DNA of 64,000 nt, taken from contig NC_057749.1 in assembly GCF_004010195.1 (NCBI RefSeq), positions 6,167,933 to 6,231,932 on the forward strand, written 5' to 3'. Source of the stretch: Chiloscyllium plagiosum. Its lineage: Eukaryota. Below are positions 3,155-57,380 of this stretch, in pieces. The notes under the pieces are model-generated. The model did not search any database and had not been told where the DNA came from. It was given only the letters and a program-made list of their open reading frames with translations. The position numbers were made by a program, and so were the translations under genes. How positions within the stretch are numbered: position 1 is the stretch's first letter; each line of letters begins with the position of its first letter.

Positions 3155-3292
3155 AATAAAAACCGAAAGAACTTGTGGATGCTGTAAATCAGAAACAAAA
3201 ACAGAAGTTGCTGGAAAAGCTCAATAGGTCTGGCAGCATCTGTGAAGAGAACTTTGAGTTAACGGTTCGGGTCCAGTGACCCTTCCTCAGAG
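3155..3292 (-). mobile_element. Penelope-like terminal repeat, family B (related copies at ~20845-20985, 27945-28200, 32060-32190, 39730-40200)
   Basis: The - strand reads CTGAGGA-a-gggtc-actg-gaccc-GAAC-cgttaactc, followed by cagatgctgccagacct..tgagcttttccagcaac. Confidence 0.65.
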
Positions 3293-3589
3293 ATAGCAGA
3301 TAGATGGGAACTCCACCCCTTACAAGTTCCCCTCCTATCCACTCACTATACTGACTTGGAAATACATTGCCCTCCCGTCAGTATTGGTCAAAATCTTGGA
3401 ATACCCTTCCTAATGGCATTGTGGGTGTACATACAGCAAATGGACTGCAGCAATTCATGAAGTCAGCTCACCACCACCTTCTGAAGAGCGAGTAGGAATG
3501 GTCAGCAAACGTTGGCCAGTGACACTGATGTGCTGTGAGTGAATTTCAAAAAAATGAAAATGTTGGTAGATTGGCAATTCCAGGGGTAA

Positions 3590-3738
3590 GAGTTGAGAAG
3601 TATGGCACTGGAAAAGCACAGCAGGTCAGGCAGCATCGGAGGAGCAGAAGAGTCAACGTTTCGGGCATAAGCCTTTTATCGGGAATGCGCCACACTTTTC
3701 AACTCTGATCTCCAGCATCTGCAGTCCTCACTTTCTCC
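3590..3738 (+). mobile_element. Decayed fold-back element (family A)
   Basis: Same arm sequence, ending cagtcctcactttctcc. Confidence 0.75.
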
Positions 3739-5570
3739 AATTCTCAGGATAAGTCCTGCTCTTTGACAGAGCAGCAGCACTAAGGCACATAGTGTGTAGT
3801 GTGAAAGTAACTTCACATTGAAGTGAAATATCACTCCAAGATATGTTAATATAAACTGAGGACAATGTGGGTAACTCTGCGTTAAGAAGGCTTGCACCTG
3901 GGTTTCCCCGTGTGATAATATTCCAACTGCAGCAGGGTGTCTGGGGAAGGTGTGACTCCTGGTGCCATTAGGAAGAATTATGTTCTCCTTCAGACATATC
4001 TGCCAATGCTTCATGGATAATGAACAACTTTGAAGTGCAGCAGCTGTTGTTATTGACCCAGCAGTCGGGTGATGAAGACTTTCTTTCCTCGATGTTGTGA
4101 TTTTTCTAGAAATGTCAGCCAGGAGAAATCTCAATGTTACACATGGACCAGGCTGACTCATCGCAGGCCGGTATGATGGAAAACCTGGAGCAGGATCCAC
4201 TGGGAACTCTCACCCAACTCGCCCAGTGGGTCTTTACACAGGTTGAGGCCTAGTCTGTGTTTTATGCCTAAAGATAAAAAAGAAAAGAAAGTAAATCTTT
4301 CGCAGCTGTACTTAAAAAAGCAGAGCAACACATCAGGGGATTGAAAGGGTGTCAAATAGATTGCTCAAAGATCCAATGCTTGTGATTTCTTAAGATTCAT
4401 CTAGTTAAACTGTGCTTTCTTTTAGAAACGTTATATAAGTAAGGAACCTTAGTCCACAAAGGACCATAGGCATGTTTCTTCTTTAGAAAAAGAATGGCAG
4501 CTGATTATATGAAAAGTGTAACCAATTCACAAGCATGAAATAAAAGGAGGAGGTAGGTTACGACAGGGATTGAAGCCATGCTGTTAGCTTTATTCTGCAT
4601 CCCCCTTTAGACATCAAATTAACTGTGCGAACCAATAACATTCCCCACCCCCACACCCCTGCCTAACCATTGCCTAACCAAAGTCTGTCTATCTCAGAGA
4701 ATCGACTTAGAGCTCAAGATCAACTTTGAACAAGAAAAGATGGAATAGAGTCTCATAAATGTACAGAATGGAAACAGACCCTTTGGTCCAACTTGTCTGC
4801 ACCGACCAGACATCCCAGTCTGACCTAGTCCCATTTGCCAGCACTTGGACCATATCCCTCTAAATCCTTCTTATTCTTGAACCAATCTAATGCCTCTTAA
4901 GTGTTGTAATTGTACCAACAACAACCACCACTTCCTCCAGCAGCTCATTCCATACACGCATTGTTTTCTGTGTGAAAATATTACCCCTCAGGTTCTTATT
5001 AAATTTTTGCCCTCGCACCTTAAGCCTGACCATCTGTTATGGACTCTCTTACCTTGGGAAAATGACACTGGCTGTTCACCTTATCCATGCCTCTCATGAT
5101 TTTATACACCTCAGTGAGGTCACCCCTCAGCCTCCAACACATCAGGCAATAAAACCCCACCCGATTCAGCCTCTCCCGATAATTCAAACCCTCCAATCCA
5201 GGCAGCAGCTTTTCTGCACCCTTTCAAGTTTAACAACATCATTCCCTTAGAAGGGCAACCACATTTGTAAACAATATTCTAAAGATGGCCTCATCTATAC
5301 AGCTACAACATTACGTTCCCATTCACTGTTCTGACCAATGAAGGCAAGCATGCCAAACGCCTTTGTCACCACCCTGTTTACTTGCGACTCCACTTTCAAG
5401 GAATTATGTACTTGCACCCTTAGGTCTCTTTGTTTGGCAATACTACCCAGGGCCCTACTATTAACTGTGTATGCCTTACCAAATGCAATACCTCACATTT
5501 ATCTAAATTAAACTCCATCTGCCACTCATCAGCCCATTATCCATCTGCTCAAGGTCTCATTGTACTTTGA

Positions 5571-5920
5571 GGGGTGGCACGGTGGCTCAGTGACTCAGTG
5601 GTTAGCACTGCTGCCTCACAGCACCAGGAACCCTGGATCGCTTCCAGCCTTGGGCGACTGTCTGTGTGGAGCTTGCATATTCTCCCTGTGTCTAGGTCGG
5701 TTTCTCCTCCGGGTGCTCCAGTTTCCTCTCACAGCGCAAAGATGGGCACGTTAGGTGAGTTGGCCATGCTAAATTGCCCATAGTGTTCAGGGATGTGTAG
5801 GTTAGATGCATTAGTCAGGGGAAACGTAGGGGAATAAAGTCTGGATGGGTTACTCTTCAGTGGGTCAGTGTGAACTTGTTGGGCCAAATGGTCTGTTTCC
5901 ACACCGTAGGGATTATATGA
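5571..5920 (+). mobile_element. V-SINE (HE1-like) inserted into CR1
   Basis: Same head, core and tail as 32751-33072. Confidence 0.88.
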
Positions 5921-6233
5921 TAATCTTCTTCACTGTCCACTACAGCACCTATTTTGGTGTTATCTGCAAACTTACTAACCATGCCTCTTATGTTCACATC
6001 CGAATCATTTATATAAATGACAAAAAGCGATGGACACAGCTCCAATCCTTGTAGCACTCCACTGGTGACAGGCCTCCAGTCCAAAAAGCACCATCGTCCT
6101 CTGTCTGCTACCTTCAAGCCAATTTTGTATCCAATTGGCTAGTTCCCATGGGATTCCATGTGATCTAACCTTGCTAACCAGTCTACCAGGCAGAATCTTG
6201 TCAAATGCTTTACTGAAGTCCATATAGACAACG

Positions 6234-6438
6234 AGGAGAAAGTGAGGACTGCAGATGCTGGAGATCAGAGCTGAAAATGTGTTGCTGGAAAAGCGCAGCA
6301 GGTCAGGCAGCATCCAAGGAACAGGAGAATCGACGTTTCGGCATAAGCCTGGGGAAGGGCTTATGCCCAAAACGTCGATTCTCCTGTTCCTTGGATGCTG
6401 CCTGACCTGCTGCGCTTTTCCAGCAACACATTTTCAGC
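6234..6438 (-). mobile_element. Fold-back Penelope-like element (family A) inserted into CR1 RT
   Basis: Inverted arms. TSD tccatatagacaacg at 6219-6233 and 6439-6453. Confidence 0.85.
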
Positions 6439-9400
6439 TCCATATAGACAACGCCTACCATTCTGCCTTCATCAATCTTCTTTGTCACCGCTTCACAACA
6501 TTTGATCAAGTTGGTGAGACATGATTTCCCATGCTCAAAGCCGTGTTGACTATCATTAATCAGTCCTTGCCTTTCTATATGCGTGTTAAATCCTGTCCTT
6601 TAGAATCCCCTCCAACAACTTACCCATCACTGACATAGTTGCTATATTCTTAGACTTACAGGGGCAGCATGAGAGCCAGACATTTTGACAGCTGCTGTGG
6701 AAGGGTAAATATATATGGTAATTGTGAGCACAGGGTGATAGGTGGGTTGTTTGCCAATGTGCCAGGTGGATAAAGGGGAGATTGCTAGTGGTTTGGGTGC
6801 CTGGATCTCAGGTATGTAGGGTACCACGTCAGCTGGTAAATCGATACAATGTCAAGGAGTGAGGAAAGGGGACAGCAAAGAGATGGAACGTTTGGGGCCA
6901 GTTAGGCTGAATGGGGGATATCAAGTCAAGGTCAGAGGGTAAGGTGTCTGGAGATGGCATGGTAAGTTGTGGGAGGAGCTAAATTTAATATCTACCCAGG
7001 TCTTTGACTAGATTTCTAATTCTCTAATTTTACCTGCATGACTATTTACTTGATGACAGTGGCACCCTCCAAATTCCTGTATATAAATACACACTTTTAG
7101 AAGAGTCCAAGCATAGGGAAAAGACCCATTGGAATCGTCAATTTCCTGAACATTTCCCTTGGAGTCTGCTACGTTGGGGATAATGCTGGGTCCCTGTGCA
7201 CAAGTCCCCTCTACACTGTAGTAATGATCATCTGGCCATCGGAAAAGCCAGGACTCTGTCCGGAAAGTGATCCTCACCACCAATGATAAGCTGACTTGCC
7301 TGTGGTTACTGAATTTATCCTTCTCCTCTTGTTAGTGTGAATAAATGATTGCAAAGTGCTGATATTTTCCAGGTCAGGGAAGGTTAAATTTCATAAATAT
7401 TAAACAGCAGCAGCCCTATTATTTTCTGTGAAGTAATATTTCAATATTATAATTTTGGTACTGCATTCAAAGAGCAGAAGGGGAACTGCAGAATAGTCTG
7501 TTTAATGAATAGGTAGTGTTCTGTACTCTTTGAATTTTTAGCCCTAGTTGAATTCATTTTTAATAAGTATTTAAGCTAACGATGTAGGTATAATCCAAAA
7601 TCGAATGTTCACACACTGGCAGAGTTCATAATGTAACATTGTCAATGTTTTAGACCCCCGTGTCCTGCTAGACAGTTTGAGCAATCCTTATTTGACTGAA
7701 AAAAACTTAAATCACAATCTGACTCACACTCTGAATCTGGGTCAGGAGAAGGTTCATTAATATTAGTCCCTCGTATGCTGTTAAATGATAATTCTTAATG
7801 ATGTTATTCCCAACGAAATGTGAGATGGAAATTCCCATGGTGTCAGGAAGCATAGAAACTGGACCCATTTAATTGCCAGAGAGGCCATTTATCAATCTCT
7901 TAACAACTGGAAAGAGCTAACGAGGGAAAAGCAAATGAATGTCAATTAGACTCATCAACAGGCCAAATTGACACCCATTAACCCTGAGCCCACCCTTCAA
8001 ATATGGGAACCACAGTGTACACAGTCTTTCAGGTGCAGTAAATGGCCAGTATAGTGGCAACAAAAGTTCCTTGCTTTTTAGCTCCAACCAACCATTCCCC
8101 ACTCCCACACCACCCCCCATTCCCCCCCTCCCAGCAATTAAGGCCTAATGTGCATTTGCCCTTCTTAACGACTTGCTGTATCTGCATGCTAACAGTTTGT
8201 GTTTGATACACAAGACCATCTGGACCCCTCTGTGCTTCACTGTTTTGGAGTTTACCTCCATTTATATAAAAATCTGCCTTTTGCTAGTCCTGCATTGTTC
8301 TGTAATGTCTGTTCTGCCAGACTGAACGTTACACTTGACAGTGCCTTTATCATTTTTGATCTTCTGTATAAACATCTTGATTATGCTTCTCTCTTTTAAG
8401 ATAGCAATAACTGAGATTGACAGCATTCCAATTTTGTCAAGTGCTTTTTAAAGGAAGGCACATGTGTAACTATTACAGATTGTAGTCTTTCATCTGAATG
8501 TTGCACATATTATATACCAGGGTCCATTTAGCAGTGCTCAGTGGGGAGGCGCATTCAAAGAAAATTTATGTCAGAAATTAGAGATAACACTTTATCTGAC
8601 AGACCCCCTAAAAATCAGGGCTGAAATAGAAATGTAGGGCTGAATTTTCCCAAAGTGTGATTTCAGTGCATTTTGTGATGGGTTTCCCTCTGTGAGCCCC
8701 AGTGACATTTCTCACCTGACGTTACACTGCTCACTTCATTAAGAGTGCACCCTCGCCTCTGCAGTGCTGCTGTTACACAATCTTGTAATTAGCGATGGCC
8801 AAAGTCCCAGGACCTTATGGTGCTCATGTCCCATGATTATGTCCCACCATTTCAAAGGTTGTCAGCCAGGTGTGAAGTAGCCACCTGGGTCAGTATGATC
8901 TGGAGGAACGTACAGTAATGTCATATGAAGGTTATTGACCTTCTGCATTCTTCAAGGATAAGTTCCACTATCTTCCCCCTACTACTTCACACTCTGCCAT
9001 TGCACTCATCTCCAACCAAGACTAATAGACTTCAACTCTTGATATTGCATGCAGCATCTTCTCTCAATGACTCTCACCCCTCTAAATTTTCTTCACTCTG
9101 CAATTCCTACTAATTCACTTGAGACACCTCATCACCTTTTTTGAACAAGGATGGACTAGCCCCTTGACTACCATGGTCTCCATTGACTGGACTAAGGACT
9201 GCTCCCCTTAGACTTAAATGGGTCCAGTTTCTATGCTTCCTGACACAATGGGGTTATTTGGTTGAAAGGTGTTTGCTGTATTAATTGCAGCCACATGTTC
9301 GAGGTGTGACAAAAGACATAGCACAGTGTCGTGCAGCAATATGTCCACCCCCTTGACTGCTCGAGCTGAATTTACCCAGAATTCATCTGAGTGTCAATTC

Positions 9401-10556: not shown

Positions 10557-10690
10557 GATGAAAGTGAGGACTGCAGATGCAGGAGATTAGAGTCGAGAGT
10601 GTGGTGCTGGAAAAGCTCAGCAGGTCAGGCAGCATCCGAGGAGCAGGAGAATCGACGTTTTGGGCAAAAGCCCTTCATCAGGAATGAGGC
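10557..10690 (-). mobile_element. Single-arm family A element with a mutated hammerhead core
   Basis: The - strand reads cattc-CTGATGA-a-gggc-tttt-gccc-AAAA-cgtc-gatt. Confidence 0.8.
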
Positions 10691-11971: not shown

Positions 11972-12250
11972 TTACAGAAGGAGATAGAACACATGCTCTA
12001 AGATGGTATAATCAAAGTGAATTACACTGACAGGAGCTCACCTATAGTCATGGTGCCAAAGCCAGATGGTACCCAACAGTTATGTGTGGACTATTACAAA
12101 GTTAATGCCTTTACAAAGACTAATGCATATCCAGTTCCGCGGTTGGAGGACTGTGTTGAAAAGATGGAACAAGCAACTTACATTTCTAAGTTGGACTTGC
12201 TCAAAGGCTACTGGCAGGTATCTTTGTCTGAGGGAGCAAAGGCAATTTGC
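11972..12250 (+). mobile_element. Gypsy RT fragment in the orientation opposite to the adjacent element
   Basis: SSPIVMVPKPDGTQQLCVDYYKVNAFTKTNAYPVPRLEDCVEKMEQATYISKLDLLKGYWQV (ORF 12017-12256). Confidence 0.9.
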
Positions 12251-13156
12251 CATTAAGAAAGCCAAAATTGCCTTTGCTCCCTCGGACTTTCCAATAGTCC
12301 ACACATAACCGTTGGGTACCACCTGGCTTTGGCACCATGACTATAGGTGAGCTTCAGTCACTGTAACTTACGTTGATCCTACCATTTTAGAGCATATGTT
12401 CTATCTCCTTCTGAACCTGCGCCAACTTTAGAGGGTTATGCCTATAAGGATATTGTTTAATTGGAATAGCATCTCCCATATCTACGTCATGCACAATTAG
12501 GTTAATACTTCGCAGTTTGTTTCTGCATATCTCCCCATATGATAGTAATAACTCTTTCAGGTCATTTCAATTTTCTTGTGGAAGGTAAGTCAATAATTTA
12601 TCCGAATATTTGGACAATTTCCTCATTGTCCAATTTGATTTGAGGAATGTCCAATTCAGAATCCTCTGAACTTGGTTCTTCGTTCTGTGCTGTAATCATT
12701 AACACCTTCTCCTCTTGCTTTCCTTCCCTGTCAAAATACCTTTTGAGCAGATTCACATGTCACACTCTGTGAGATTTCTTCCTGTCTGGAGCCCCAATCA
12801 AGTAGTTCACCTCACTCAATTTCCTTTCAATTTCATAAGGTCCACTAAAACGTGATTTTAAAGGTTCACCTATTACTGGAAGTAACACCAATATCTTATC
12901 CCCAACAGTAAAATTGTGAATTTGTGATTTCTTATCTGCTTCCTGTTTCATTGTATGCTGCGATACTTTCAAATGCTGTCTAGTCAACTCTCCAGCTCTA
13001 TTTAGTTGTTCTGTAAAATTTGACACATAGTCCAAATGGGTGGTCTCTGAATTCTCTCTTGTTAATTTCTCCTTAATAAATTTTAATGGTCTTCTTACTT
13101 CATGCCCAAAAAATAATTCAAACGGATTGAATTTGGTTGATTCATTGGTGCATCTC

Positions 13157-14095
13157 ATAGAGTCATGGAGATGTACAGCATGGAAACAGACCCTTCAGTC
13201 CAACTCGTCCATGCTGACCATATATCAATCTAGTCTCACCTGCCAGCACCCGGCCCATGTCCCTCCAAACCCTTCCTATTCATATACCCATCCAGATGCC
13301 TTTTAAATGTTACACTTGTACCAGCCTCCACCACTTCCTCTGGCAGCCCATTCCATACACGCACCACCCTCTGAGTGAAAATGTTGCCCCTTAGGTCTCT
13401 TTTATATCTTTCCACTCTCACCCTAAACCTCTGCCCTCTAGTTCTGGGTTCCCTCATCCCAGTGAAAATACCTTGTCTATTTACCCAATCCATGCTCCTC
13501 ATGATTTTATAAATCTCTACAAGGTCACCCCTCAGCCTCTGACGCTCCAGGGAAAACAGCCCCAGCCTATTCAACCTCTCCCTACAGCTCAAATCCTCTA
13601 ACCCTGGCAACATCCTTGTAAATCTTTTCTGAACCCTTTCAAGTTTCACAACATCCTTCTGATAGGAAGGAGACCAGAATTGCACGCAATTTTCCAACAG
13701 TGGCCTAACCAATGTCCTGTACAGCCGCAACATGACCTCCCAACTCCTGTACTCAATAAAGGAAAGCACACCAAATGCCTTCTTCACTATCCTATCTACC
13801 TGCGACTCCACTTTCAAGGAGCTATGAACCTGTAGTCCTAAGTCTCTTTGTTCAGCAATATTCCTTAGGATCTTACCATTAAGTGCATAAGTCCTGATAA
13901 GGTTTGCTTTCCCAAAATGCAGCACCTCGCATTTATCAAAATTAAGCTCCATCTGCCACTTCTCAGCCCATTGCTCATGTGATCAAGATCCCATTGTAAT
14001 TCAAGGTAACCTTCTTCGCTGTCCACTACACCTCCAATTACTAACTATAAAAAGATACTAACTATATCTTTTAAGCTCACATCAAAATCATTGCA
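13157..14095 (-). mobile_element. 5'-truncated CR1 LINE inserted into the Gypsy integrase
   Basis: The 238-aa ORF 13236-13952 is the CR1 RT C-terminus (LYRTLVRPLLENCVQFWSP, RLRGDL). The tail is at 13157. The integrase is split at IRD|, with atctc on both sides. Confidence 0.93.
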
Positions 14096-16397
14096 ATCTC
14101 TGATTGGAAAAAGTCGAAACGGAACTCCCTTTCTCCAATCATTTGGATAGTCCTGATCATCAGCCCTCAATATGGCCGTTAATGTTTGATGCCATCTCTC
14201 TAGTGCTCCCTGTGATTGTGGATGGTATGCCGTAGATTTGAATTGCTTTATTCCCAAGTTATTCATAACCTCCTTGAATGGTTTGGATGTGAACTTTGAC
14301 CCTTGATTGGACTGTATCTCTATTGTTAGTCTGTATCTAGGAAAAACTTTGAATAATTCTTCTACAACCTGTTTAGCTGTGATATTGCATAATGGGACTA
14401 CCTCAGGAAATCTAGTCAATGCATCCGTCATTGTTAATAAATACTTATTCCCACTTTTTGCTTGAGGTAAGGGACCTACGCAATCAATCAAGACTCTTGT
14501 GAAAGGTTCCTCAAATGTTGGAATAGGTATTGAAGGTGCAGGCTTTATTACTGCCTGTGGTTTTCCGATTAGCTGACATGTATTAGCTGGCTGTACAGGT
14601 CACCTGGCAAAATTCAACTTCATCCCTGTGCAGTCCAGGCCAGTAAAAATGTCTTTGTATTTTAGCCTGTGTTTTCCTCACTCCTAAATGATCTCAAGTG
14701 GTAGCTCATGTGCCACTTGCAGCACCTCCTTTCTGTCACCTACTGGCAAAACAATTTAATGAACTTCTGCCCATTTCTCATCTGCTTGACTGTGTGATGG
14801 TCTCCATTTCATTACTAAGACATCATTTTGTTAAGTAATAACACACAGGATGCATTCACCCTCCTTCTCTGCATATGCCTTTTGATACAACTGTTTTAAG
14901 TTCTCATCTTTCTGCTGTAACTCAATAAGCTGAGCAGAGCTAAAGATACTTGCATTTCTAAAATTTGGGTCCCGCTCTGTCCCACTCATTTGATCAAAAA
15001 AAGTCTTTGATAATGCTACTTCCTTATCTGTGCCTTTTGATTTCTCTTGCTTCAGCTTGTGACTCTATGATCTTGTTACTACACAATCAGGGAAGATTCC
15101 TGAATAAACGTCTGCATTTCTTCAGTTGCCTATGTCTCCACTGGCTTTTTAACTAGAGTAGGCAGCACGCCTACCTGTGAATCAGCTATATCATTTGAAG
15201 GGCAAATTGTATTCCTGGGGCTGAGAGTTTGTCCAGTACACCTACCACATATTCTCCACTCTTTTCTGGACAGTTTAGCCTCACTTTTTGTCTCACTATG
15301 GATTTCCGTTACCAGTATCTTTTCTGGCAATAGTCCTTCAGGAGTACATATCTCCTCATTCTTTAGCATCACAAACTGAGAGAATCCTGTGTCCCTTAAT
15401 ATTGTAACTTCTTTACCTACTACTCCTGGCCTGTGTGAATACATTTTTATATTTTTTAGCAGATCTGGCACTTCCTCCTTAATCAACCTCTGATGCAGCT
15501 TTTTAGCTTCCATTGGGCTGTTTGTTACCATGCCAACAAAACTTCCAGGCTTGTCTTATTTTCCTACATCTGGCTTTCCCCCAGCCCACCAGCACTGTGA
15601 TTTCATGTGACCCACTTTATTACAATGAAAACACCGGAGCCTTTTTACCTTCTGTGTCCCCCTCATGGGTTTCTTTTTCACCCTGTGGTAAATTATCTTT
15701 ATGATCTTCACTGAGATCTACCTTTCCCTTTCCACGTGAGGATATCTCTTTGCCCCAGTTTCTATCCCTCATGGACTAAAATTGATTCTGGAGGCCAAAC
15801 TGTGTTTTATGGACCAGCTCATAATCATCAGCCACTTCAGCTGCTAACCTTGCCGTTTCAAACTCTTCAACATGAGTTTGCGCTGCTTCAAGCAGTAATT
15901 TTTTGAATTCCTTCAAATTAATTACCTCTCTAAGGGCATGGTAGGTTTGCTTTACTTTTTATAGCTCTTATCCATCTATCAGAATTTACTTTGTTTGATC
16001 CTTTCAAACTTAACATAGGTTTGATCAGGGTTTCTCCTTAAATCCCTGAAATGTTGTCCATTGGCTCCCGGGTATGTTCACATGCACTTATGTTGGTTTT
16101 TTCACCTCCTCATACTTCCCAGAAATTTCCTCTGATCGTGATCTCTCGCCCTACCTGCAAGTTTTGTTTAGATCAACAAAACCCACATGGTCACTACATT
16201 TGTTTAGCCACTTTTCCAAATGAGATGGAAAAGGCTTCCACGTGCCTTTCATCAAACTTAGGCAATGCTTGACCGTACTTAAACATTTCCCATCAGGCTT
16301 TCGCCCAGCATGGATTTGCTCATCCCCACTCTCTTCTTCACTAGACTTGCCTTTAGCCTTCATCTCCATCCTTTTAAGCTGACTTCCCTTTTTAAGT

Positions 16398-16609
16398 AAG
16401 CAAAAGTGAGGACTGCAGATGCTGGAAACCAGAATTTAGATCAGAGTGGTGCTGGAAAAGCACAGCAGGTCAGGCAGCATCCGAGGAGCAGGAAAATCGA
16501 CGTTTTGGGCAAAAGCCCTTCATCAGGAATCCTGATGAAGGGCTTTTGCCCGAAACGTCGATTTTCCTGCTCCTCGGATGCTGCCTGGCCTGCTGTGCTT
16601 TTCCAGCAG
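16398..16609 (-). mobile_element. Fold-back Penelope-like element (family A) inserted into Gypsy gag
   Basis: Inverted arms centred at ~16529. TSD ttc(c/t)ctttttaagt at 16384-16397 and 16610-16623. Confidence 0.85.
16528..16563 (+). ncRNA. Minimal type-I hammerhead ribozyme motif
   Basis: aatc-CTGATGA-a-gggc-tttt-gccc-GAAA-c-GTC-gatt, with stem I aatc/gatt. The mirror copy on the - strand has GAAA>AAAA. Confidence 0.75.
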
Positions 16610-17051
16610 TTCTCTTTTTAAGTGTCAGTTTTTGCAGTTCAAACTCTCTTTCTCTTTCTCTTCTGCTTCTAACCGTAATTCAAACTGTTTCATTTCTGCT
16701 GCCGTTTCCTTATCTCTCGCCTCTAACTCAAGCTGCTTCATTTGCAATTGAATTCTTGCCATCTCTATATATCCTGATGGTGTTTCCAGCAACTTTAAAT
16801 GCTGAGCTACTGCTGAAATCACCACATCTTTCCTCACATTAGGACGTAACTTCAACGCCAGCTTGTCTACTAACTCCTGCAGCTTGGTCTTCTTCGCCTT
16901 CTGTAAAACTTCCAAAGTCACCTTGTCCACCTCCAGAAAGCTCTTGGTGACTAAGAGAGCCATTGTTATCCCAAGCTTTGTCTACCCAACCAAACCAACA
17001 CCTGAAATAAAGACACTAGCACCTACGACCTACCACAAAGAGCCCCGAGTC

Positions 17052-17670: not shown

Positions 17671-18131
17671 ATATGTTTTTGAGGGGGTTTGACCTGGTCC
17701 ATAACAGACCGGAAAAAACCTTGTCTTACTCCACCTGCTCTGGGCGTGGTCACAGCCATTTCCAGTATGCAGTTATGATGTTTGCAAGAGTAGAAGACAG
17801 CAGGCGCTGTGCTTGGCACAGTGAGTCACAGCCTGGTAATCAAGGAGCCCCCACAAGCCTCCATGTTCCTTTCTTCCTGGCTTTCCTGTTGAGCCCACCA
17901 GTGTGGACCCTCCACACGATCCCAGTAATCAATTTGAATTGTGACTTAATCTCCCAGCATTACCCCCTGAGCCCAAGACAGCTTAGTTATTGTGCTGCAT
18001 TGGCCCCCACCGTCAAAGTTGCAGCGCTTGTCATTGTCAGTGATTCTCCCCTTTCTGCGTGGTGTCAGTACAGCCGCAGGGCTATGTAAGTAATGTGAAC
18101 CAACTGATCGGAGTGGCATATACCCATGCTG

Positions 18132-18349
18132 AAACTTTATTGCTGGAACAGCACAGCAGGTCAGGCAGCATCCAGGGAACAGGAGATTCGACGTTTCGGG
18201 CACAGGCCCTTCTTCATTCCTGAAGAAGGGCCTGTGCCCGAAACGTCGAATCTCCTGTTCCCTGGATGCTGCCTGACCTGCTGTGCTGTTCCAGCAATAA
18301 AGTTTCAACTTTGATCTCCAGCATCTGCAGACCTCACTTTCTCCTCGAA
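18132..18349 (+). mobile_element. Fold-back Penelope-like terminal-repeat element (family A) with a 15-bp TSD
   Basis: Perfect inverted arms centred at ~18217. TSD catatacccatgctg at 18117-18131 and 18350-18364. Confidence 0.85.
18216..18251 (+). ncRNA. Minimal type-I hammerhead ribozyme motif
   Basis: attc-CTGAAGA-a-gggc-ctgt-gccc-GAAA-c-GTC-gaat. Stem I is attc/gaat, stem II is gggc/gccc, the catalytic core and GUC triplet are intact, and stem III is vestigial. Activity is untested. Confidence 0.75.
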
Positions 18350-20281: not shown

Positions 20282-20990
20282 AGAAAGTCTCAATAGAAAT
20301 GTTGAGTGAAAGTGATTCTGATCTATAATTGACACTTTTTTCAAGCTAGTCTAAGAACTTGTTTTGCACTTTAAGGCAAACTATCCCCCTTTACCTAATA
20401 GGAAACACACACCACTTTGCCTTCCAATTGAGCGTAGCTTACAAAATACAAAATGTTTAAGCTGCAGTGGTTAGAGTCTGTACCTCTGGACAGAAGCTCT
20501 GAGTTCACTTCCCACTCCAGAATTTGATGGTGAGGAAAAGTGCAACATTACACAATCTAGAATGTTGGTTATCAATCTGCCTATCTTTCTGATTGCCAAT
20601 GGCAGGCTGTAAGAGCAGGCCAGTTTCCTGTTGCTGCAAATTAAATGATTTCGACTTCAGATACTTGCTATAAGCCAGTGTCATTCCCTTTCTGAGAGCC
20701 AGAGAGAGAGACACACCCACACAGTGACCTCCAACTGGCTAATTGTGTGAACCATCTGAGGTTTGATCAGTCTGCTGAAGGGAGCAAAGAAGCCCTTCCA
20801 ACCTTTCCCAAAAAAGGTGATAATGTTTTCTTTTCCGTCACAAGCAAAATCAGAAATTACTGGAAGATCTCAGCATCTGTGGAGAGAAAGCAGAGTTAAT
20901 GTTTCAGGTCCAGTGACCCTACTTCAGAATTGCTGAGTTTTTACAGCAATTTCTGACTTTGCTTCTGATTTCTAGCAACTGCAGTTGCAG

Positions 20991-27612: not shown

Positions 27613-28239
27613 AAGGAACTTGGTTTCAGCTAAATGATCATTAGTGTTTCTATTTATTTTATAAATCTAAGTGGATCATGAAAGGCAAGAGTAAATTTAA
27701 TCAAATATTGCCCATACCTGGGCTAACCTATGTGTAGTTAACTTTATTTCATTATATCTTCAGAAATATGAGAGCTAAGAAGCAATAATTGCATCCCTTT
27801 CAGCATTGCCTGTATTCTAAAAAACAATCAGAAAGCAAAAACAATAAAGACCTTCCCTCTACTGTAACATCAGAAGTGGGCGTGTATCCTGAGGATTGTG
27901 CATTGTTAACCGTCATATGTGAATCCTCAGTTACTGAAGTAACAAGAACAAAATCAGAAATTGCTGGAAAAAATCAGCAGGTCTGGCAGCATCTGTGGGG
28001 AGAAATGTTTTGGATCCAATGACCCTTCTTCAGAACTGATGATAGCTGGGAAAGGGTTGGTACAAATGCTAAAGAAGGGATGTGGGGAGGGCACAGGAGT
28101 AAACAATAGTGGAGGTAGAGCCCAGCGAGAGAGAGTACAACAGTTGGACAGACAAAAGTGTGGGTAAAGATCAGCCTGGGAGAATGCAGCAAGACCTGGC
28201 AATATCCAGTTTTAAATTGCCAAGTGGCAAAACACATTC

Positions 28240-31888: not shown

Positions 31889-32204
31889 GAGAACATTCTG
31901 TCCATCAGCTTCTTTGAGAATGCTACCCAGTTCATTACATTCTCTTGTACTTTGATCACGACCCTCCAAATGTTCCAATTGATTCCATTCCATGTCAATA
32001 ATTAGCATTGAATCCGTTTCCAGTTCCATTTTCAGAAAACAACAACTATATCTGTAATAAAAGCAAAATAGTGGAGATGCTAGAAATCTGAAATTAAAGC
32101 AGAGATATTGGAGAAAGTCAACAAGTCTGGCAGCATCAGTGGAGAGAGAAACAAAGTTAATTTTCCAAGTCCAGTATGATTCTTCTTCACAGGCATATGT
32201 TTCT

Positions 32205-35300: not shown

Positions 35301-36154
35301 CAAGTAGTCCAGTAATGCATCCAACGTCAAGGTTTCAACTCAGGTGAAGCTCAATTGATGCTCTACTCTTCACCAGTCGATGTACATGGGTAGGAGAAAC
35401 CTTTGCTCTCAGGTACTTAGAGCTGTCAGAATGTTCCAACGTTAATTGATATTTAAAATTGGTGTTAAATAGGGTCAAGGCTGGACGGACCGTGGAACAG
35501 TGCAAATGCGTAGGGGCAAGGGTTAAATCAAGTAACATTCAATATAATTTTCAAGCATTAAAGTTGGGTCTTTGAGCTAGAGTAACCTCATTGGCACATC
35601 CTTTACACGAAACACTTGCAACCGATTTTTTTCACCTCACATCCCATTTACTCTATTTGCATTTATAAAGCGTCTTTCAACATCTCACAGTGTTTCACCA
35701 AAGTGCCATCAAACAGAACTTGACACCAAACTACCCAAGAGGGTATTCAGACAGGTATGTATGTGCTTGGTCCAAAAGCATTATATTCATAAGATGATAT
35801 GAGACTAATGCAGGAGAGGGCCATTTTACTGATTGACTCCACTCTACTATTCAATAGAATCATGACTTATTTAAGAGTGGTCTTAACCCAACTTTCCAAC
35901 CTGTCCTCCATGTATCCCTGATTGTTCAAAAATCTTTCTAAGTCGAGCTTTAATGACCCAACTTTGATTGTTCCCTCTCAAAAGGAATTCCAAATGAGAA
36001 TGATCCTCTGAGAGAAGAAACTGCATCTTAAATGGGAGATGCCATATTTTTAAAACCGTCAATAGACGTGAGGCTGGAACAGCACAGCAGATCAGACAGC
36101 ATCTGAGGAGCTAGAAAGTCAATGTTTCAGGCTGAAGCCCTTTGAAACCCATCC

Positions 36155-36480: not shown

Positions 36481-38634
36481 ACCTGCTGTGCTTGTTCAGC
36501 TTCACGTATATTGACTCTGGCTTCCAACACCTGCAGTTCTTCCTGTCCCCTAGTTTTTGAAAGAGTGCTGAGTTCCAAAGTGGAGTCATCCTCCCAACAG
36601 TCAGGGCCCCTTAGAATCAGAATATATTTCTTCAAGATCACCTCTCACTCTTCTAAGCACCAATGAATCAGTACACATACCTCATTTCAGGCCATGATAC
36701 ACTCTGAGTTCCCATTACATATATTTTTGATGAATGTCTTGAAGGAAAAGAGAGACGTTAAGCCATGATCTTTCCCCAGCAACTGATATTGAAGAAAAAC
36801 TTGGTAAACCATAACGCAAGTGGAAAATGTTTTAAGCTTACAATGGGAGGAACAAAGACCTTTCGAGATAAATTAAAGCAGAACATGGTTGACGCTGCCA
36901 AAGAAGCTGCTAAGAATTCCATCTCGTTCCCCACATGTAAAGAAAACAAGGGCTTCAGAAGCAAATATTTATGTGAATATTCCTTTAGTGAATTGACTTG
37001 TGAAATTTTGCAGTGAATGTAGACAGATTATACCAAAAACTCTCCAATTTGGGTTTTAGCACCTTACTAAGTAAGATTTTAAAATATCACATAAACGGCG
37101 GACAGGGTTGGCTGGCTAGCACTCTCAATGGTTCAGAAGCTTAATTCATGGCTCATTTTGATGCTGGACTTTATAGCCTGACATGATGTGGGTCTGACCC
37201 TCACTGTAGAGTGAGTTAACTCATTGCAGCCAAGAGAGCAGTTCAGGAGTTATAAGCATTATGAGGACCTTGGACCAAGTCAAAGGTCAAAATGGGCAGG
37301 CAGACCTTCTACTTGTGACCCTGTTCAACCTGGCATCTACCAGGTGCAGATGGAATGTGAGGAGCACCCAGGTTAGCTGCAAGGATAATATCCTCAAATA
37401 GCTCACTTGTGCTCACTGCCTGTGCAGTGAAGATTAGTCAATTTGGTGAGATTCTGGAATTTGGTGAGTGCCTATTGAGCCATTAGAGTGTGCCTTCGTG
37501 GGAAAACATTGGAGGGATCAATAATATTCAAAATTATTTATTTAATTGATAATATTCTAACAACCTTTTGTCAGATGTTGCAAAAAATGTCTCTGAACAA
37601 GCAATGGGAAATAAAATAAAGACTCATAATCAATATTATCAGAAAAGAATATTTCTTAAAGAATCCCACCCAAGCGATAAATGTAAAAAGATAATTTAGT
37701 CTTTCCCCGCTGCACACCAGTAACATTCCTCTTCAATCTCTTCCTATACAGTTGTGAAAGTGTGTTTTTTAAACAGGTTAACTAATTCATTAGAGTAGCA
37801 CAGAAAGGAATCAACCAGTGCACAGAAAACATCAAACGATAGTGTGACTGCTAAATCTGGAATCTGACTCCAGAATCATTGTAAGATCTACACACCATCC
37901 TAATGCCACAGGTAAGCAGGTTGGATGAGCGAAGAAGACAATGATTAGAGCTGACAGAACATGATATGCCGCCAACTTGTCGAATCGAGAATGAGAAGTG
38001 AAAGATTAAGTTATCTATTTTGTTGGGATTTTTTTCCCCATTTTAAGAATGGGAATTATTTTGTTTGCAGGGAGTTTGCTTGTCGATGTCATCAATCTGT
38101 GTTAGATGCATGAATGGAGAGCACATGATGTTAATTCTCAAGATACGAGCGTCGCTATCTGGCCTAACATTTATCACTTAGCCTTGGTTGGACCATCATG
38201 CAATTAACTGACTTGTGGGCTACTTTAGGGAGTGGTTAAGACTCAACCACATTGGTGTTATGTATGGTCCATATCCCAGGTAAAGACAGCATGTACAATC
38301 TCCCTATAAAACATCAATGAATCAGTTGACCTTTATGTCAGATTAGCAGTTAGTTTTATTTCTATTATATAATTTGCAAATATATTTTTAAACAGAATTA
38401 CAATTTGAACTTATTTTTTCTGAATTTCTAGTCGAGTAACAGAAACAGTACATGACCAGGTCCTACGGTGGCAACTAAAAAGAAGTCAATTTGTCTAGTA
38501 AAGAAATACCTTGTAAAATTTGCATATAATAATAATTCTCACTTTGAAGTCATTGTATGTCTGGTGACACATAGCTGTTCTTTCACCATTGATCTCAAGG
38601 TAAGACCATGCAGTCCAAGGCTGAGGTGACATTA

Positions 38635-38846
38635 AGGCTGAAAATGTGTTGCTGGAAAAGCACAGCAGGTCAGGCAGCATCCAAGGAGCAGGAGAATCGA
38701 CGTTTCAGGCATGAGTCCTTCAGGAAGAAGGACTCATGCCCGAAACGTCGGTTCTCCTGCTCCTTGGATGCTGCCTGACCTGCTGCGCTTTTCCAGCAAC
38801 ACATTTTCAGCTCTGATCTCCAGCATCTGCAGTCCTCACTTTCTCC
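38635..38846 (+). mobile_element. Fold-back Penelope-like element (family A)
   Basis: Inverted arms. TSD ctgaggtgacatta at 38621-38634 and 38847-38860. Confidence 0.85.
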
Positions 38847-39386
38847 CTGAGGTGACATTACGTTATGCTTGATTTCTCATTCTAGATGACACAGACCTTT
38901 TCAAGGCTTGAAAATTGTCATCATCATTTGGAATAAGATATCAAACACAGCATACCAATCTCCAGTTCTGGAGAAGAGTTGCTGTTCTCAAGACATTGGC
39001 TCTGCTTTCTCTCCACAGATCCTGCCAGACCGGCTGAATTTATTGAATCATATATTCCCCACAGTGTGAAAAGAGGCCATTCAGCCCATCAAGCCTGCAC
39101 TAACCCTCCAAAGAGCATTCCATCCAGACCAGCATCCCAACCCTATCCCCTTAACTCAACACTTATCATGGCTGGTCGGCATGGACGGGTTGGACCGAAG
39201 GGTCTGTTTCCATGCTGTACATCTCTATGACTATGACTCTATAACCTGCACATCCATGCTGAATTTCTTCAGCCGTTTCTGTTTTAGTTTCATTGTAATT
39301 TTCCCTTCATTATTCTTTCACAGCTTGTGAACTTCCCTAGTTAGTCAGCATTAATTCCTTATTTAATTGCCTTTGGGAAGGTAGCA

Positions 39387-39510
39387 GGAGAAAGTGAGGA
39401 CTGCAGATGCTGGAGACCAGAGTTGAAAAATGTGGTGCTGGAAAAACACAGCAGGCCAGGCAGCATCCGAGTAGCAAGAGGCATTTCGGGCATAAGCCCT
39501 TCTTCAGGAA
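39387..39510 (-). mobile_element. Single-arm family A element
   Basis: Arm sequence flanked by ggaaggtag(c/t)ag direct repeats. Confidence 0.75.
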
Positions 39511-40609
39511 GGTAGTAGTGAGCTGCCCTCTTGAACTGCTGTCATCCTTGTGGTGTAGAAACATTTCAGTTAGAAAGGAAGATCCTGACCCAAAATGATG
39601 GACTGCACGCAACCCAGAGAAAGAAATTCCCAAAGAGATGTCGGGTGTCCCCACTATTTCATCAGACAGTCAAACTTTCACATCAAAAACAATCATTGGA
39701 CAAGTCCGTCAAACATCATTAACTAACTAAAAGCAAAATACAATGGATGCTGGGAATCTGAAGTGAAAACAGAGAATGTTAGAGAAGCTCAACAGGTCTG
39801 GCAGCATGTTTGGAAATTGAACAGATCAATCATTTTGAAAGCTTGTGTTTTCAAATAAACCCGTTGGACTATAACCTGGTGTCGTGTGATTTTTGACTTT
39901 GTCCATCCCAGTTCAACACCTCTACATTTTGAGTCCAGTATGACTTCTTGGAAAATCAATCAGAGTTAACAGTTCGGGTCAAGAATGTCTGAGGAGGGGT
40001 GACTCGAGCCAAGACATTAACTCTCATTTTTGTCCACAGATGCTGCCAGACCTGCTGAGCTTTTCCAGCAAAACTTTGTTTTCTTTCTGTTTTACTGCAT
40101 CCTCAAATCTTTTGGTTTTTAAGAAGAGTTGTAACAGAGTCAAAGCTCTCTCCACAGATCCTGTCAAACCTACTGAGTTTCTCCAGCACCCTCTGGTTTT
40201 ATATCATTAACCAACTATTCTGATTTGAACTGAATAGCTTCCCTGTGTCATACTTGAGGAATTGGTATGACAATGCATTGGGCAATGCATTCCATGAATT
40301 CAGCAAGTCTGGCAAGATCTGTGGAGAGAAAGCACAGCCAACATCTCAAGTCCAGCAATCCAACTTGCCATAATTCAAGTTCTCCAGTCCAAAATGCTTA
40401 CGATCAAGTCATTTCCAGATAGCATAATTTTCTGGATTACAGAATGTTAGAATGCCTAAATACATGCATGCAAACTGGAAAACACCGCTGATGTAACTAC
40501 TTGCCTGAAACATAAAACAGTGACAAGATTCAAAACTGTTTAATGCAAATTGTGTTGTCCATTCAGGAATATATCGCTGGTGCTTTGCTTGTTTGTTAAA
40601 AAAATACAT

Positions 40610-43526: not shown

Positions 43527-43699
43527 AGTCAAAGAGTGGGGTGCTGGCAAAGCATAGCTGGTCAGGCAGCATCCGAGGAGTTGACGTTTTGGGCATAAGC
43601 CCTTCATCAGGTTGCTCCTCGGATGCTGCCTGACTGGCTGTGCTTTTCCAGCACCACACTCTTCAACTCTGATCTCCATCTGCAGTCCGCACTTTCTCC
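43527..43699 (+). mobile_element. Decayed fold-back element (family A)
   Basis: Inverted arms flanked by tagtgacaa direct repeats (43511, 43700). Confidence 0.78.
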
Positions 43700-51691: not shown

Positions 51692-52942
51692 ACATTACCA
51701 GGGCTAACAATTACGATGCGATTAGGCAAGATTTAGGAAGCATAGGATGGAGAAGGAAATTGCAGGGGATAAGCACATTAGAAATGTGGAGCTTATTCAA
51801 GGAAAAGCTACTGTGTGTCCTAGGTAAGTATGTACCTGTCAGGCATGGAGGAAGCTGTAGAGCGCGGGAGCCGTGGTTTACGAAAGGAATGGAACCTCTG
51901 GTCAAAAGGAAGAAGAAGGCTTATGTTAGGGTGAGATGTGAAGGCTCAGTTAGGGTGCTTGAGGGTTACAAGGTAGCCAGGAAAGACCTAAAGAGAGAGC
52001 TCAGAAGAGCCAGGAGAAGACATGAGAATTTGTTGGTGGATAGGATCAGGGTAAACCCTAAGGCTTTCTATAGGTGTTTAAGAAATAAAAGAATGACGAG
52101 AGTAAGATTAGGGCCAATCAAGGATAGTAATGGGAAGTTGTGTGTGGAGTCAGGGGAGATAGGGGAAACACTAAATGAATATTTTTCAACAGTATTCACT
52201 CTAGAAACGACAATGTTGTCGAGGAGATTACTGAGATACAGGCATCTAGACTAGGTGTGATTGAGGTTCACAAGGAGGCAGTATTAGAAATCCTGCAGAG
52301 TGTGAAAATAGATAAGTCCCCTGGGCCGGATGGGATTTATCCTAGGATCCTCTGGGAAGCCAGGGAGGAGATTGCCGAGCCTTTGGCATTGATCTTTAAA
52401 TCGTCATTGTCTACAGGAATAGTGCCAGAAAACTGGAGGATAGCAAATGTGGTTCCCCTGTTCAAGAAGGGGAGTAGAGACAACCCTGGTAATTATAGAC
52501 CAGTGAGCCTTACTTCAGGTGTTGGTAAAGTGTTGGAAAAGATTATAAGAGATAGGATTTATAATCATCTAGAAAAGAGTAATTTGATTAGGGATAGTCA
52601 GCATGGTTTTGTGAAGGGTAGGTCGTGCCTCACAAACCTTATTGAGTTCTTTGAGAATGTGACCAAACAGGTAGATGAGAGTAAACCGGTTGATGTGGTG
52701 TATATGGGTCTCAGCAAGGCGTTCGATAAGGTTCCCCACAGTAGGCTATTGTACAAAATGCAGAGGAATGGGATTGTGGGAGATATAGCTGTTTGGATCA
52801 ATAATTGGCTTGCTGAAAGAAGACAGAGGGTGATGGTTGATGGGAAATGTTCATCCTGGAGTCCAGTTACCAGTGGTGTACCACAAGGGTCAGTGTTGGG
52901 TCCACTGCTGTTCGTCATTTTTATAAATGACCTGGATGAGGC
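51692..52942 (+). mobile_element. CR1 ORF2 internal fragment (linker plus RT N-terminal half)
   Basis: [36 protein letters not shown] and [22 protein letters not shown] in ORF 52257-53165. Confidence 0.95.
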
Positions 52943-53284
52943 AGTACACCACCAATTTTGGTATTACCAGAAACTTACTAACCATACTTTTGATCTTCTA
53001 ATCCTAGCCATTTACATAAATGACAAGCAAAAGCAGACCCAGCACCAATCCCTGTGGAACTGTTGGTCACACCCTTTCAACAATACACTCTGCCTCCTGC
53101 CGTTAAGCCTATTTTGTATCCAATTAGCAGCTCACCCTGAATCCCATGTGACCTACCTTTATTAATTAGTCTACCATGCGGAACCTTGTCAAGGGCTTCA
53201 CTAAGTCCAAGTAAACAATGTCTACTGCTCTGCCCTCATTGATCTTTATGATTATTTTCTCAAAAAACTCAATCAAGTTTGTGA
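52943..53284 (-). mobile_element. Inverted, more decayed CR1 RT fragment
   Basis: Similar to 21780-22131 (caccaattttgg...aaaaaactcaatcaagtttgtga). Confidence 0.8.
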
Positions 53285-53734: not shown

Positions 53735-53935
53735 ATAACACACTTAACCTCTTCAACACAGCCAATCCACCTAAACCGCACATCTCTGGACTGTGGAAGA
53801 AAACTGGAGCACCCAGGGGAAACCCATGCAGACATGGGGAAAATGTGCCAACTCCAGTCACCTGAGGGTGGAGTCAAACTCAGGTCCCTGGCACTGTGAG
53901 GCTGCCTTAATAATCACTGAGCGATCATGACACTG
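53735..53935 (-). mobile_element. Partial V-SINE
   Basis: Reverse-complement head and core. Confidence 0.75.
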
Positions 53936-55754: not shown

Positions 55755-56790
55755 TTACTCTCACCTTTTGTTTTGCTTCTCTCCCTCACTCTCTGTTCTC
55801 CCCTCCCCACTGCTCTCCCCTCTATCTGCTATTTTCATCTCTCTACTGTATGCCCTGGTCTCTATTATTCTGCCCTCTCTACTGCTAGTCTGCCCTCTCT
55901 ACTGTACTCTCCCTCTCTCTCTCTGCTCTCTCCATTCTCTGTTCTCCCCTCTCTCTGCTTTACTCCCCACTATCAGCTANNNNNNNNNNNNNNNNNNNNN
56001 NNNNNNNNNNNNNNNNNNNNNNNNNNNNNNNNNNNNNNNNNNNNNNNNNNNNNNNNNNNNNNNNNNNNNNNNNNNNNNNNNNNNNNNNNNNNNNNNNNNN
56101 NNNNNNNNNNNNNNNNNNNNNNNNNNNNNNNNNNNNNNNNNNNNNNNNNNNNNNNNNNNNNNNNNNNNNNNNNNNNNNNNNNNNNNNNNNNNNNNNNNNN
56201 NNNNNNNNNNNNNNNNNNNNNNNNNNNNNNNNNNNNNNNNNNNNNNNNNNNNNNNNNNNNNNNNNNNNNNNNNNNNNNNNNNNNNNNNNNNNNNNNNNNN
56301 NNNNNNNNNNNNNNNNNNNNNNNNNNNNNNNNNNNNNNNNNNNNNNNNNNNNNNNNNNNNNNNNNNNNNNNNNNNNNNNNNNNNNNNNNNNNNNNNNNNN
56401 NNNNNNNNNNNNNNNNNNNNNNNNNNNNNNNNNNNNNNNNNNNNNNNNNNNNNNNNNNNNNNNNNNNNNNNNNNNNNNNNNNNNNNNNNNNNNNNNNNNN
56501 NNNNNNNNNNNNNNNNNNNNNNNNNNNNNNNNNNNNNNNNNNNNNNNNNNNNNNNNNNNNNNNNNNNNNNNNNNNNNNNNNNNNNNNNNNNNNNNNNNNN
56601 NNNNNNNNNNNNNNNNNNNNNNNNNNNNNNNNNNNNNNNNNNNNNNNNNNNNNNNNNNNNNNNNNNNNNNNNNNNNNNNNNNNNNNNNNNNNGTTCTCCC
56701 TTCTCTGCCGATCCCCCTCCCTGCTCCCCCTCTCTATATTGACTTGTCTTTAATGTTACTGCCTCTCTCTCTCTGCTCCTCCCCCTGTGG
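55755..56790. repeat. CT-rich low-complexity tract spanning an assembly gap
   Basis: Pyrimidine-rich sequence on both sides of the N run. Confidence 0.8.
55980..56692. other. Assembly gap (N run)
   Basis: Seen directly. Confidence 1.
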
Positions 56791-57177
56791 CTGTCCACTG
56801 ATTGAACTCGCCACATTAGGTTTCATTGCTTCTGACATTCATTTTGCTGAAAATCTGAGCCGTAATCTAGGCCAGGCCTGACCTGAGTCTCAATCTCTCC
56901 AAAGTGATCACATGTATTCTGAACAAATCTGTGCTTCGATTGTATGCATTTCCAATGGATCCTTTACATTGTCCTTCTTTTCTCGTTGATTCCAAAGCCA
57001 AGTTTCATGAGCCCCAGGAAACAGGTAATTGTGTCATTGAAATTGGACGCAGACTGAAATATCACTGCAATGATTCATAAACTTATGCTGCTAACCTGCC
57101 TTTCTAAAGGGGATTACTGGTAACCTGCTGAAAATATGTATGTTCAACTCAAATGTCAATGCGTTGGATTTAGCTTA

Positions 57178-57380
57178 GTGAGAAGTCACATGACCCCAGG
57201 TCATAGTCCACCGGGTTGATTTGAAATCACAAGCTTTTGGAGTGCTGCTCCTTCCTCAGGGTCTGGCGAAGGAACAGTGCTCCAAGGGCTTGAGATTTCA
57301 AATAAGCCCGCTGGACTATAACTTAGCGTCTTGTGACTTCTGATTTTATCCACCCCAGTCCAACATCAGCAACTCCGCAT
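57178..57380 (+). mobile_element. Fold-back Penelope-like element, family C (partial copy at ~39838-39927)
   Basis: Imperfect inverted arms centred at ~57261. The - strand reads CTGAGGA-a-ggag-cagca-ctcc-AAAA-gcttgtg. Confidence 0.65.

Follow-up and report, generated by a model that had tools for sequence, protein, structure and literature searches.

Minimal hammerhead motifs of three repeat families in the shark Chiloscyllium plagiosum probably mark the 3' ends of Penelope-like elements

Scattered along a 64,000-nucleotide stretch of the genome of the shark Chiloscyllium plagiosum (assembly GCF_004010195.1, contig NC_057749.1, positions 6,167,933 to 6,231,932, forward strand; hereafter the window) are copies of three repeat families, A, B and C, that share a hammerhead core. 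BLAST searches with family representatives found 31 pieces in the window across the three families, and 23 arms (14 A, 7 B and 2 C) reach the hammerhead region. We conclude with good confidence that the families are 3'-terminal pieces of at least two deeply diverged shark lineages of Penelope-like elements (PLEs), each carrying a minimal hammerhead ribozyme (min-HHR) kept by selection on its master elements. On this reading, the recurring hammerhead-like strings are ordinary Penelope-type debris, not a new ribozyme class or a feature of a host gene, and they can be masked and annotated as retroelement debris.

Only 2 of the 23 window arms, both of family A (16532 and 18220, plus strand), retain every invariant letter of the core; in each of the other 21, all B and C copies among them, one or more of these letters has been lost. 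The same two sites are the window matches of a strict min-HHR descriptor, which asks for the box with one extra nucleotide, a G-C-closed stem of at least 4 bp, GAAA, complementary positions 15.2 and 16.2, and U-H; in 300 first-order Markov resamples it found none. Both belong to head-to-head palindromes, and at least six head-to-head pairs are present in the window. At 16420..16611 (loop TTTT) the plus arm, 16532-16559, has an intact core with helix I GAUU/AAUC, and the minus arm (motif start 16526) carries G12>A (AAAACGTC). At 18127..18312 (loop CTGT) the plus arm, 18220-18247, keeps an intact motif in which helix I has 4 bp (GAAU/AUUC) and the cleavage triplet is GUC, and the minus arm (motif start 18217) carries C3>A.

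Other family A copies are more decayed. Both arms of the palindrome at 38625..38814 (loop TCAT; motifs at 38722 on the plus and 38723 on the minus strand) are damaged, the minus arm partly lacking the junction between CUGANGA and the stem and the plus arm reading AGGAAGA for CUGAAGA. Three copies have loop TTAT. The one at 39427..39510 (minus strand, motif at 39507) keeps the core box and stem II and has GAAATGCC for GAAACGUC, so that 15.2 and 16.1 are altered; the arm at 43540..43656 (minus) has G12>A (AAAACGTC) at 43610 and a short inverted partner at 43614-43656; and at 6256..6446 a plus arm at 6349 (CTGGGGA, G12>A) faces an inverted partner arm at 6256-6361. A TTTT-loop copy at 10600..10689 (minus) also has G12>A. 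Decay has gone further at 3602..3686 (minus; CCGATAA), 36073..36148 (minus; core box gone) and 61086..61169 (plus; TTGATGA, GAAAGGTC).

Three family B copies on the minus strand are scored by R1, a covariance model built from 28 B copies. At 3154..3291 (motif 3290-3256; 50.1 bits) the sequence reads CTGAGGA-A-GGGTC-ACTG-GACCC, then GAAC (A15.1>C), CGTT and AACT. The copy at 20838..20932 (motif 20927-20895; 52.5 bits) has CTGAAGT (A9>T, or A9>U in RNA), stem GGGTC/GACCT and GAAACATT (16.2 G>A), and that at 27930..28037 (motif 28033-28005; 32.3 bits) has G12>A (AAAAC) and stem GGGTC/GATCC. Further B copies are strongly decayed at 32076..32190 (minus) and decayed at 38964..39041 (plus; CTGGAGA, altered stem). 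A cluster at 39744..40369 holds decayed B pieces at 39744-39814 (minus), 39988-40119 (plus), 40147-40200 (plus) and 40300-40369 (minus), and a family C tail piece at 39837-39920 (plus). The family C head-to-head pair at 57193..57376 consists of a minus arm, 57259-57228, with G12>A, an A.C mismatch at the top of the stem and no remaining helix I, and a plus arm starting at 57263, with CTGGCGA and no GAAA. All 23 window arms are dead insertions. An earlier note on this DNA had placed three families here, each with CTGANGA, an extra A, a stem and GAAA; re-reading the sequence bore this out, and the copies that it named are all present among the larger number found here.

We searched the whole genome (3.56 Gb, 101,977 contigs) with exact core patterns, each of which specifies the extra A followed by the G10.1-C11.1 closing pair. 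Family A gave 87,506 matches (43,730 and 43,776 on the two strands), family B 974 (486 and 488) and family C 26,672 (13,431 and 13,241), and the reversed control patterns gave none on either strand for any family. A family-blind pattern, CTGANGA-N12-17-GAAANNTH, matched 315,971 times (158,244 and 157,727), compared with 13,076 (6,544 and 6,532) for its control. Motif variants with other stems also occur, for example AAUCUG-GGC-CAGAUU at G000:C1:1054689-1054717 (plus) and GGGU-UAU-ACCC, another stem type, at position 2997 (minus) of locus L070, one of the loci fetched from the genome; these variants suggest that there are more than three hammerhead-bearing lineages.

All three families have CUGANGA, one extra A, a paired stem II and GAAA, and in all three helix III is replaced by a palindromic ACGU or AGCU. 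Anchored on the two boxes, stem II is GGGC-N4-GCCC in A, GGGUC-N4-GACCC in B and GGAGC-N3-GCUCC in C. The two core-proximal pairs are invariant G-C. Beyond them the families differ: at 10.3-11.3, families A and B have G-C where family C has A-U; at 10.4-11.4, A has C-G, B has U-A and C has G-C; and the stems of B and C gain a fifth pair. The earlier note had given the C stem as GGAG-CAGCA-CTCC, which is how it reads in the window, whereas intact genomic C copies have the 5-bp stem with a 3-nucleotide loop. The 15.2/16.2 pair, C-G in families A and B, is reversed to G-C in family C, a flip that turns ACGU into AGCU and so keeps self-complementarity.

Positions left free by the search patterns were scored across genome copies of A (17), B (30) and C (31), a set that leaves out six loci overlapping neighbouring loci, L069-L073 and copies without 10-nucleotide flanks. 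Helix I of family B is AACU/AGUU, and its four pairs (1.1-1.4) are formed in 22, 23, 26 and 22 of the 30 copies. In family C it is GUG/CAC, with pairs 1.1-1.3 formed in 28, 27 and 26 of 31 copies and the fourth position paired in only two. Family A has GAWU/AUUC, its four positions being paired in 12, 15, 5 and 15 of 17 copies. In each family, none of 1000 shuffles reached the observed helix I pairing. U16.1 is kept in 27/30 B and 31/31 C copies. Position H17 is C in A, where the search pattern sets it, U in 29/30 B copies and A in 28/31 C copies, with G in only two of the latter, so that the predicted cleavage-site triplets are GUC in A, GUU in B and CUA in C. ACGU is fixed by the pattern in A, AGCU is found in 29/31 C copies, and B has ACGU in 10/30 copies and ACAU, the product expected of CpG decay, in 19/30.

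The differences among families in stem II, helix I and the 15.2/16.2 pair are compensatory. The earlier note had drawn attention to different stems around a fixed core; all three elements indeed change on both sides, and CUGANGA, GAAA and compensatory pairing, the features on which it had staked its claim, are present in the families. Within a model-fitted alignment of A and B (107 distinct rows), 84.4% of cells were paired, against 79.6 +/- 0.5 in shuffled alignments (0/500 as high) and 18-51% in slid ones; changes on both sides occurred at 7 of 9 pairs, and the covariation score, 0.183, exceeded both the shuffled value (0.120) and the highest slid value (0.062). This alignment is biased toward the structure, and its rows are related to one another. 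Because copy number reflects amplification and is not independent evidence, the covariation rests on about three lineages and their subfamilies.

Family C could not be joined to the other two. A single structural alignment of A, B and C was dropped when MAFFT placed C one column off; R1 picks up B and A and never C; and a second model, from the A and B alignment, failed to pick up any C motif (E<=10, filters off) in 96.8 kb holding 22 C loci. This resistance to joint alignment implies that C has nothing in common with A or B beyond the core, and since joint alignment failed, cross-family pairs were taken from anchored positions and exact patterns. In BLAST comparisons, B representatives and A copies are 70-73% identical over ~80-110 nucleotides of tail. 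A and B are thus sister lineages, not independent inventions, and C is a separate one, which qualifies the earlier note's description of three distinct families: it holds for C and not for A against B.

Reverse transcriptase (RT) thumb and GIY-YIG-like endonuclease (EN) frames lie in sense orientation ~0.45-0.85 kb upstream of C motifs (L071-L073) and A motifs (L072-L074), bearing out the Penelope affinity that the earlier note had suggested. A and C thus sit in the non-coding flank of a PLE open reading frame (ORF). For family C, candidate copies in the genome number at least 2,970 for the segment 200-495 nucleotides upstream of the motif and at least 5,787 for the segment 630-950 nucleotides upstream. 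In L072 and L073, the latter segment encodes in sense an RT thumb, a linker and a Cys-rich frame, VVYLIRC..WYIGETEQRLRQ..H. Relatives of this C-linked frame are uncharacterised shark proteins, with 84% identity to one from Chiloscyllium punctatum. Long relatives carry PF00078 (RVT_1; three at E 3e-10 to 6e-9), and PF26215 and PF28514 also occur among the relatives. In a search of PDB, a profile of these relatives matched T4 endonuclease II best, over the stretch ..YLI..YIGET..LR.R.N.H, and a group II intron RT next (E 0.15); the former is a GIY-YIG enzyme.

For family A, a frame containing VLYIGETGRLL...HFNSPSHS...LIFRLGT in L074, L072 and L073 ends ~160-450 nucleotides before the motif. It aligns to the C-linked profile with 90.9% probability (hhalign, E 1.1e-6) at 17% identity, an identity low enough to indicate two old PLE lineages, and the earlier note's proposal that several ribozyme-bearing lineages co-existed in this genome is upheld accordingly. 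L071 also has an RVT_1 match at 2909-3520 (minus, E 2.7e-7), and a PLE-looking N-terminal and RT fragment lies there head to head with a C copy; we take its strings IKPADKG, LPKIHK and YRKPT to be PLE-like. Among 86 ORFs of at least 110 amino acids near motifs in the first 68 loci, 40 were scanned and lacked any PLE signal, giving only LINE-type (long interspersed nuclear element) RVT_1, PH domain and similar matches. The RT of L070 was considered as a hammerhead-linked candidate and rejected: it looks LINE-like and is 58% identical to the RT in the window at 52179-53162. That window frame (plus, 328 amino acids, RVT_1 E 5.5e-27) likewise looks LINE-like, both assignments resting on LINE-type motifs, and has no tie to the hammerhead repeats. 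Gypsy-like pol frames, ~70% identical to each other, are nested beside PLE fragments in L071:1-2500 (minus) and L046; we take their YLNDMLI motif to be Gypsy-like.

This kind of motif is known: min-HHRs have been described in the pseudo-long terminal repeats (pLTRs) of metazoan PLEs (Cervera & de la Peña 2014, PMC4209133), and the shark families are new members. As described in that paper, the layout is type I without a helix III hairpin; the features that emerge there beyond its descriptor all recur here, namely a palindromic 15.2/16.2, one nucleotide added between A9 and G10.1, and G10.1-C11.1 as a pair; helix I is short (4-5 bp there; 4 in B, 3 in C and U.U-interrupted in A); a genome holds several consensus families with compensating changes; and motifs are mostly single or inverted dual ones from truncated elements. 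The hosts differ, no shark being among the genomes named in the cited parts of that paper. Helix II is 4-5 bp here and 7-8 bp in the Schistosoma families given there, and our ~316,000 family-blind hits stand against ~4,000 in coelacanth and ~9,000 in Xenopus, figures obtained with different descriptors and hence not strictly comparable. Our literature searches on sharks turned up no description of hammerheads in shark PLEs, although the supplementary tables of PMC4209133 may list more species.

The Poseidon element PAc of Anolis carolinensis, as far as the cited account goes (PMC11167929), likewise carries its hammerhead close to the 3' end of what is inserted, followed by a short fixed tail, and its ORF runs from RT to GIY-YIG EN, an order similar to that seen here. 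Its start codon lies inside the hammerhead; here the ATG frame of CUGAUGA stops after 8 codons in C and ~17 in A, and, unlike PAc, some A subfamilies have CUGAAGA and thus no ATG. Animal non-LTR retrozymes (PMC7229834; 10.64898/2026.07.22.740005) are described as short non-coding hammerhead retroposons related to PLE pLTRs, and the latter source, a preprint, reports hammerhead retrozymes in one chondrichthyan genome. Retrozymes in these accounts form tandem arrays with canonical type-I hammerheads that include helix III, whereas the shark units are dispersed, single or head to head, and lack it.

Homology ends 85-140 nucleotides past the box in all three families, and its upstream reach varies from 0 to 532 nucleotides. 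Constant at the 3' end and variable at the 5' end, the copies behave like the tails of retroposons. An inverted, 5'-truncated head-to-head partner is present in all three long loci (L071-L073). No direct tandem of motif-bearing units was found among the 31 window pieces; the only tandem-like pair seen is two directly oriented B motifs, 121 nucleotides apart, at L021:1500 and 1621 (plus). Across the 96 nucleotides upstream of the box in the loop-TTTT subfamily of A (A-TTTT; L004:1405-1500), copies are 96-100% identical (40 scored of 527 candidates). By this measure the A-TTTT lineage looks much younger than the decayed B copies. L074 and L075 are 94% identical over 267 nucleotides.

The 5' ends of the shortest copies raise another possibility. 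In 9 of 19 A and 19 of 30 B copies, anchored homology does not extend upstream beyond the box, and their common sequence starts just 4-6 nucleotides before CUGA. Among polyadenylated single-cell RNA reads under the same species label (X20), those of other copies cease to agree with the window copy at 18214-18216 (71 and 56 reads) and also at 18296-18297, and these positions are the boundaries of the A unit. Short A subfamilies have CUGAAGA. Short A and B units might therefore be discrete non-autonomous elements led by the hammerhead, retrozyme-like or like short interspersed nuclear elements and mobilised in trans by PLEs, instead of random 5' truncations; the derivation of animal retrozymes from PLE pLTRs, one chondrichthyan included, as the preprint proposes (10.64898/2026.07.22.740005), would be in keeping with this. 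We regard the proposal as possible and lean against it. The window has no tandem arrays, A-TTTT and C continue upstream into EN-coding sequence, and the accumulation of 5' ends at one point could also reflect a strong stop, or snap-back at the 5' end of the RNA. Discrete units would in any case complement PLE ancestry and not exclude it. As a separate observation, palindrome centres fall at this same preferred 5' end, just before helix I (18214-18216 in the window).

A more ambitious combined picture strikes us as unlikely. It holds that this genome bears the largest vertebrate min-HHR load yet counted (~3x10^5 pattern hits, 24x control), that a possibly active young A-TTTT lineage is joined to a PLE endonuclease frame, and that discrete ~100-135-nucleotide A and B units have a 5' end specifically set 4-6 nucleotides before CUGANGA. 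The process setting that end could be transcription start, a strong RT stop or the snap-back that makes palindromes. If the picture were true, the shark would be a tractable vertebrate system for the in vivo role of the PLE hammerhead. For studies of the function of PLE hammerheads, modest value attaches to the very large number of copies, the youth of the A-TTTT lineage, the 5' end favoured just before the motif and the frequency of perfect palindromes.

Minimum-free-energy (MFE) folds of single A (18220) and B (L017) motifs show helix I and helix II around an open core. Two palindromic copies fold differently: each forms one hairpin (-165.4 kcal/mol for 16420..16611 and -171.2 kcal/mol for 18127..18312), so the two intact A motifs, lying within perfect palindromes, would be buried if both arms were co-transcribed. 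Family A sequence is present on both strands in X20 (1,151 reads at >=90%); a second RNA read set, X21, has no reads on the window. That the A, B and C motifs self-cleave is inferred from the published min-HHR model.

Several results weigh against selected hammerheads in PLEs. A loose pattern, CTGANGA-N8-30-GAAA, occurs 8 times in the window against 6.15 expected, and 26 of 100 shuffles reach 8, so this pattern alone shows no enrichment there. No Rfam hammerhead matched (0 at the gathering threshold; none at E<=10 on the window or a 71-nucleotide slice). The Rfam models, including Hammerhead_1 (RF00163) for canonical type I, have in common with the shark motifs the CUGANGA and GAAA core and helices I and II, and they expect the helix III hairpin that is lacking here; the palindromes, folding as single hairpins, yield only sub-threshold microRNA-like matches, as at 16420..16611. 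On the protein side, Pfam GIY-YIG (PF01541) finds no match in the endonuclease-like frames (over the whole genome it gave one weak match among the 150 scored of 14,403 candidates, a result that says little either way); the match of the C-linked profile to T4 endonuclease II is weak (E 0.02); the ORF links cover A and C and tie B to none; and the loci fetched contain no tandem pLTR-ORF-pLTR unit. Helix I is problematic in two families. Family A has a U.U mismatch at 1.3-2.3 in 12/17 copies, and its register is ambiguous because the partner slid by -1 pairs almost as well (43/68 against 47/68 in place); in C the helix has just 3 bp. The MFE of a motif homodimer (RNAcofold) lacks the ACGU/AGCU helix III and has domain-swapped stems instead, and palindromic copies fold as hairpins of -165 to -171 kcal/mol. 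X20 reads show no pile-up of ends anywhere, and depth continues across the predicted cut at 18247/18248, in a library type ill suited to revealing ends. In vitro, published min-HHRs have little activity (PMC4209133), and catalytic mutants of the Anolis Poseidon hammerhead had no effect on in vitro insertion, its cleavage needed the protein, and no RNA-seq ends were seen at the cut site in the cited account (PMC11167929).

A few of these results could be taken to mean that a chance hammerhead-like string was amplified by transposition and that the apparent covariation arose by accident, from setting three unrelated repeats side by side: the independent lineages number only about three, copy number is amplification, the loose pattern is not enriched in the window and no Rfam model matches. 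We find this very improbable. Some 17 specified positions and 4-5 stem pairs, the extra A, G10.1-C11.1, the palindromic 15.2/16.2 and U-H all recur in C, which has no detectable sequence in common with A or B (the B and A+B models miss it with filters off). A and C are placed alike relative to PLE-type EN frames, and this layout has been described in PLEs from many animals (PMC4209133).

More serious, if still rather improbable in our judgement, is the idea that PLE masters retain the motif for something other than catalysis, such as a site for binding or positioning the RT/EN protein or a structure near the start of reverse transcription, and that its likeness to a hammerhead is a relic with little or no self-cleavage in vivo. 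The unchanged insertion of Anolis mutants, the protein-dependent cleavage and the missing cut-site ends (PMC11167929), the low in vitro activity of published min-HHRs (PMC4209133), X20 reads without end pile-up, the weak helix I of A and C and a dimer MFE without helix III would all suit such a role. Yet every invariant catalytic letter, and not the helices alone, is held in three diverged families, as is an allowed H17 (C, U or A; G in only 2/31 C copies), and a mere protein site would have no need of an exact hammerhead core. The Anolis hammerhead, moreover, does cleave and follows the C3/G8 rescue rule (PMC11167929).

We therefore favor hammerheads selected on PLE masters, by a mechanism that can be proposed as follows. 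On this view each piece consists of pLTR sequence, the hammerhead motif and a ~60-110-nucleotide tail. The motif is a minimal type-I hammerhead: helix I is 3-4 bp long, CUGANGA is followed by a single unpaired A, helix II has 4-5 bp with G10.1-C11.1 as its closing pair, and GAAA comes next; where a helix III hairpin would stand there is only the self-complementary ACGU/AGCU, and the cleavage site is U-H. Following the published model, two motifs on a multimeric PLE transcript would pair through the palindrome, building helix III in trans, and would cleave on the 3' side of GUC in A, GUU in B and CUA in C; this cleavage would probably be slow and assisted by the element's protein. Selection on master elements would have held the fold while the helices drifted, and compensation between families would follow from this. 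New copies would arise by target-primed reverse transcription, with initiation in the tail and termination at varying 5' points, often leaving a head-to-head inverted partner. In the Anolis element reverse transcription begins shortly downstream of the motif (PMC11167929), a start site that fits the short fixed tails of the shark copies.

The window also contains other features. A near-perfect inverted repeat at 12209-12299, unrelated to families A-C, forms a hairpin like those of miniature inverted-repeat transposable elements and has sub-threshold mir-548/mir-550 matches on both strands. A 184-amino-acid frame at 14048-14599 (minus) with an integrase core (rve, E 2.7e-10) is probably the remnant of an LTR retroelement or DNA transposon. 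Positions 55980-56692 are a run of 713 N, which may be an assembly gap, and the long ORFs listed across it are artefacts.

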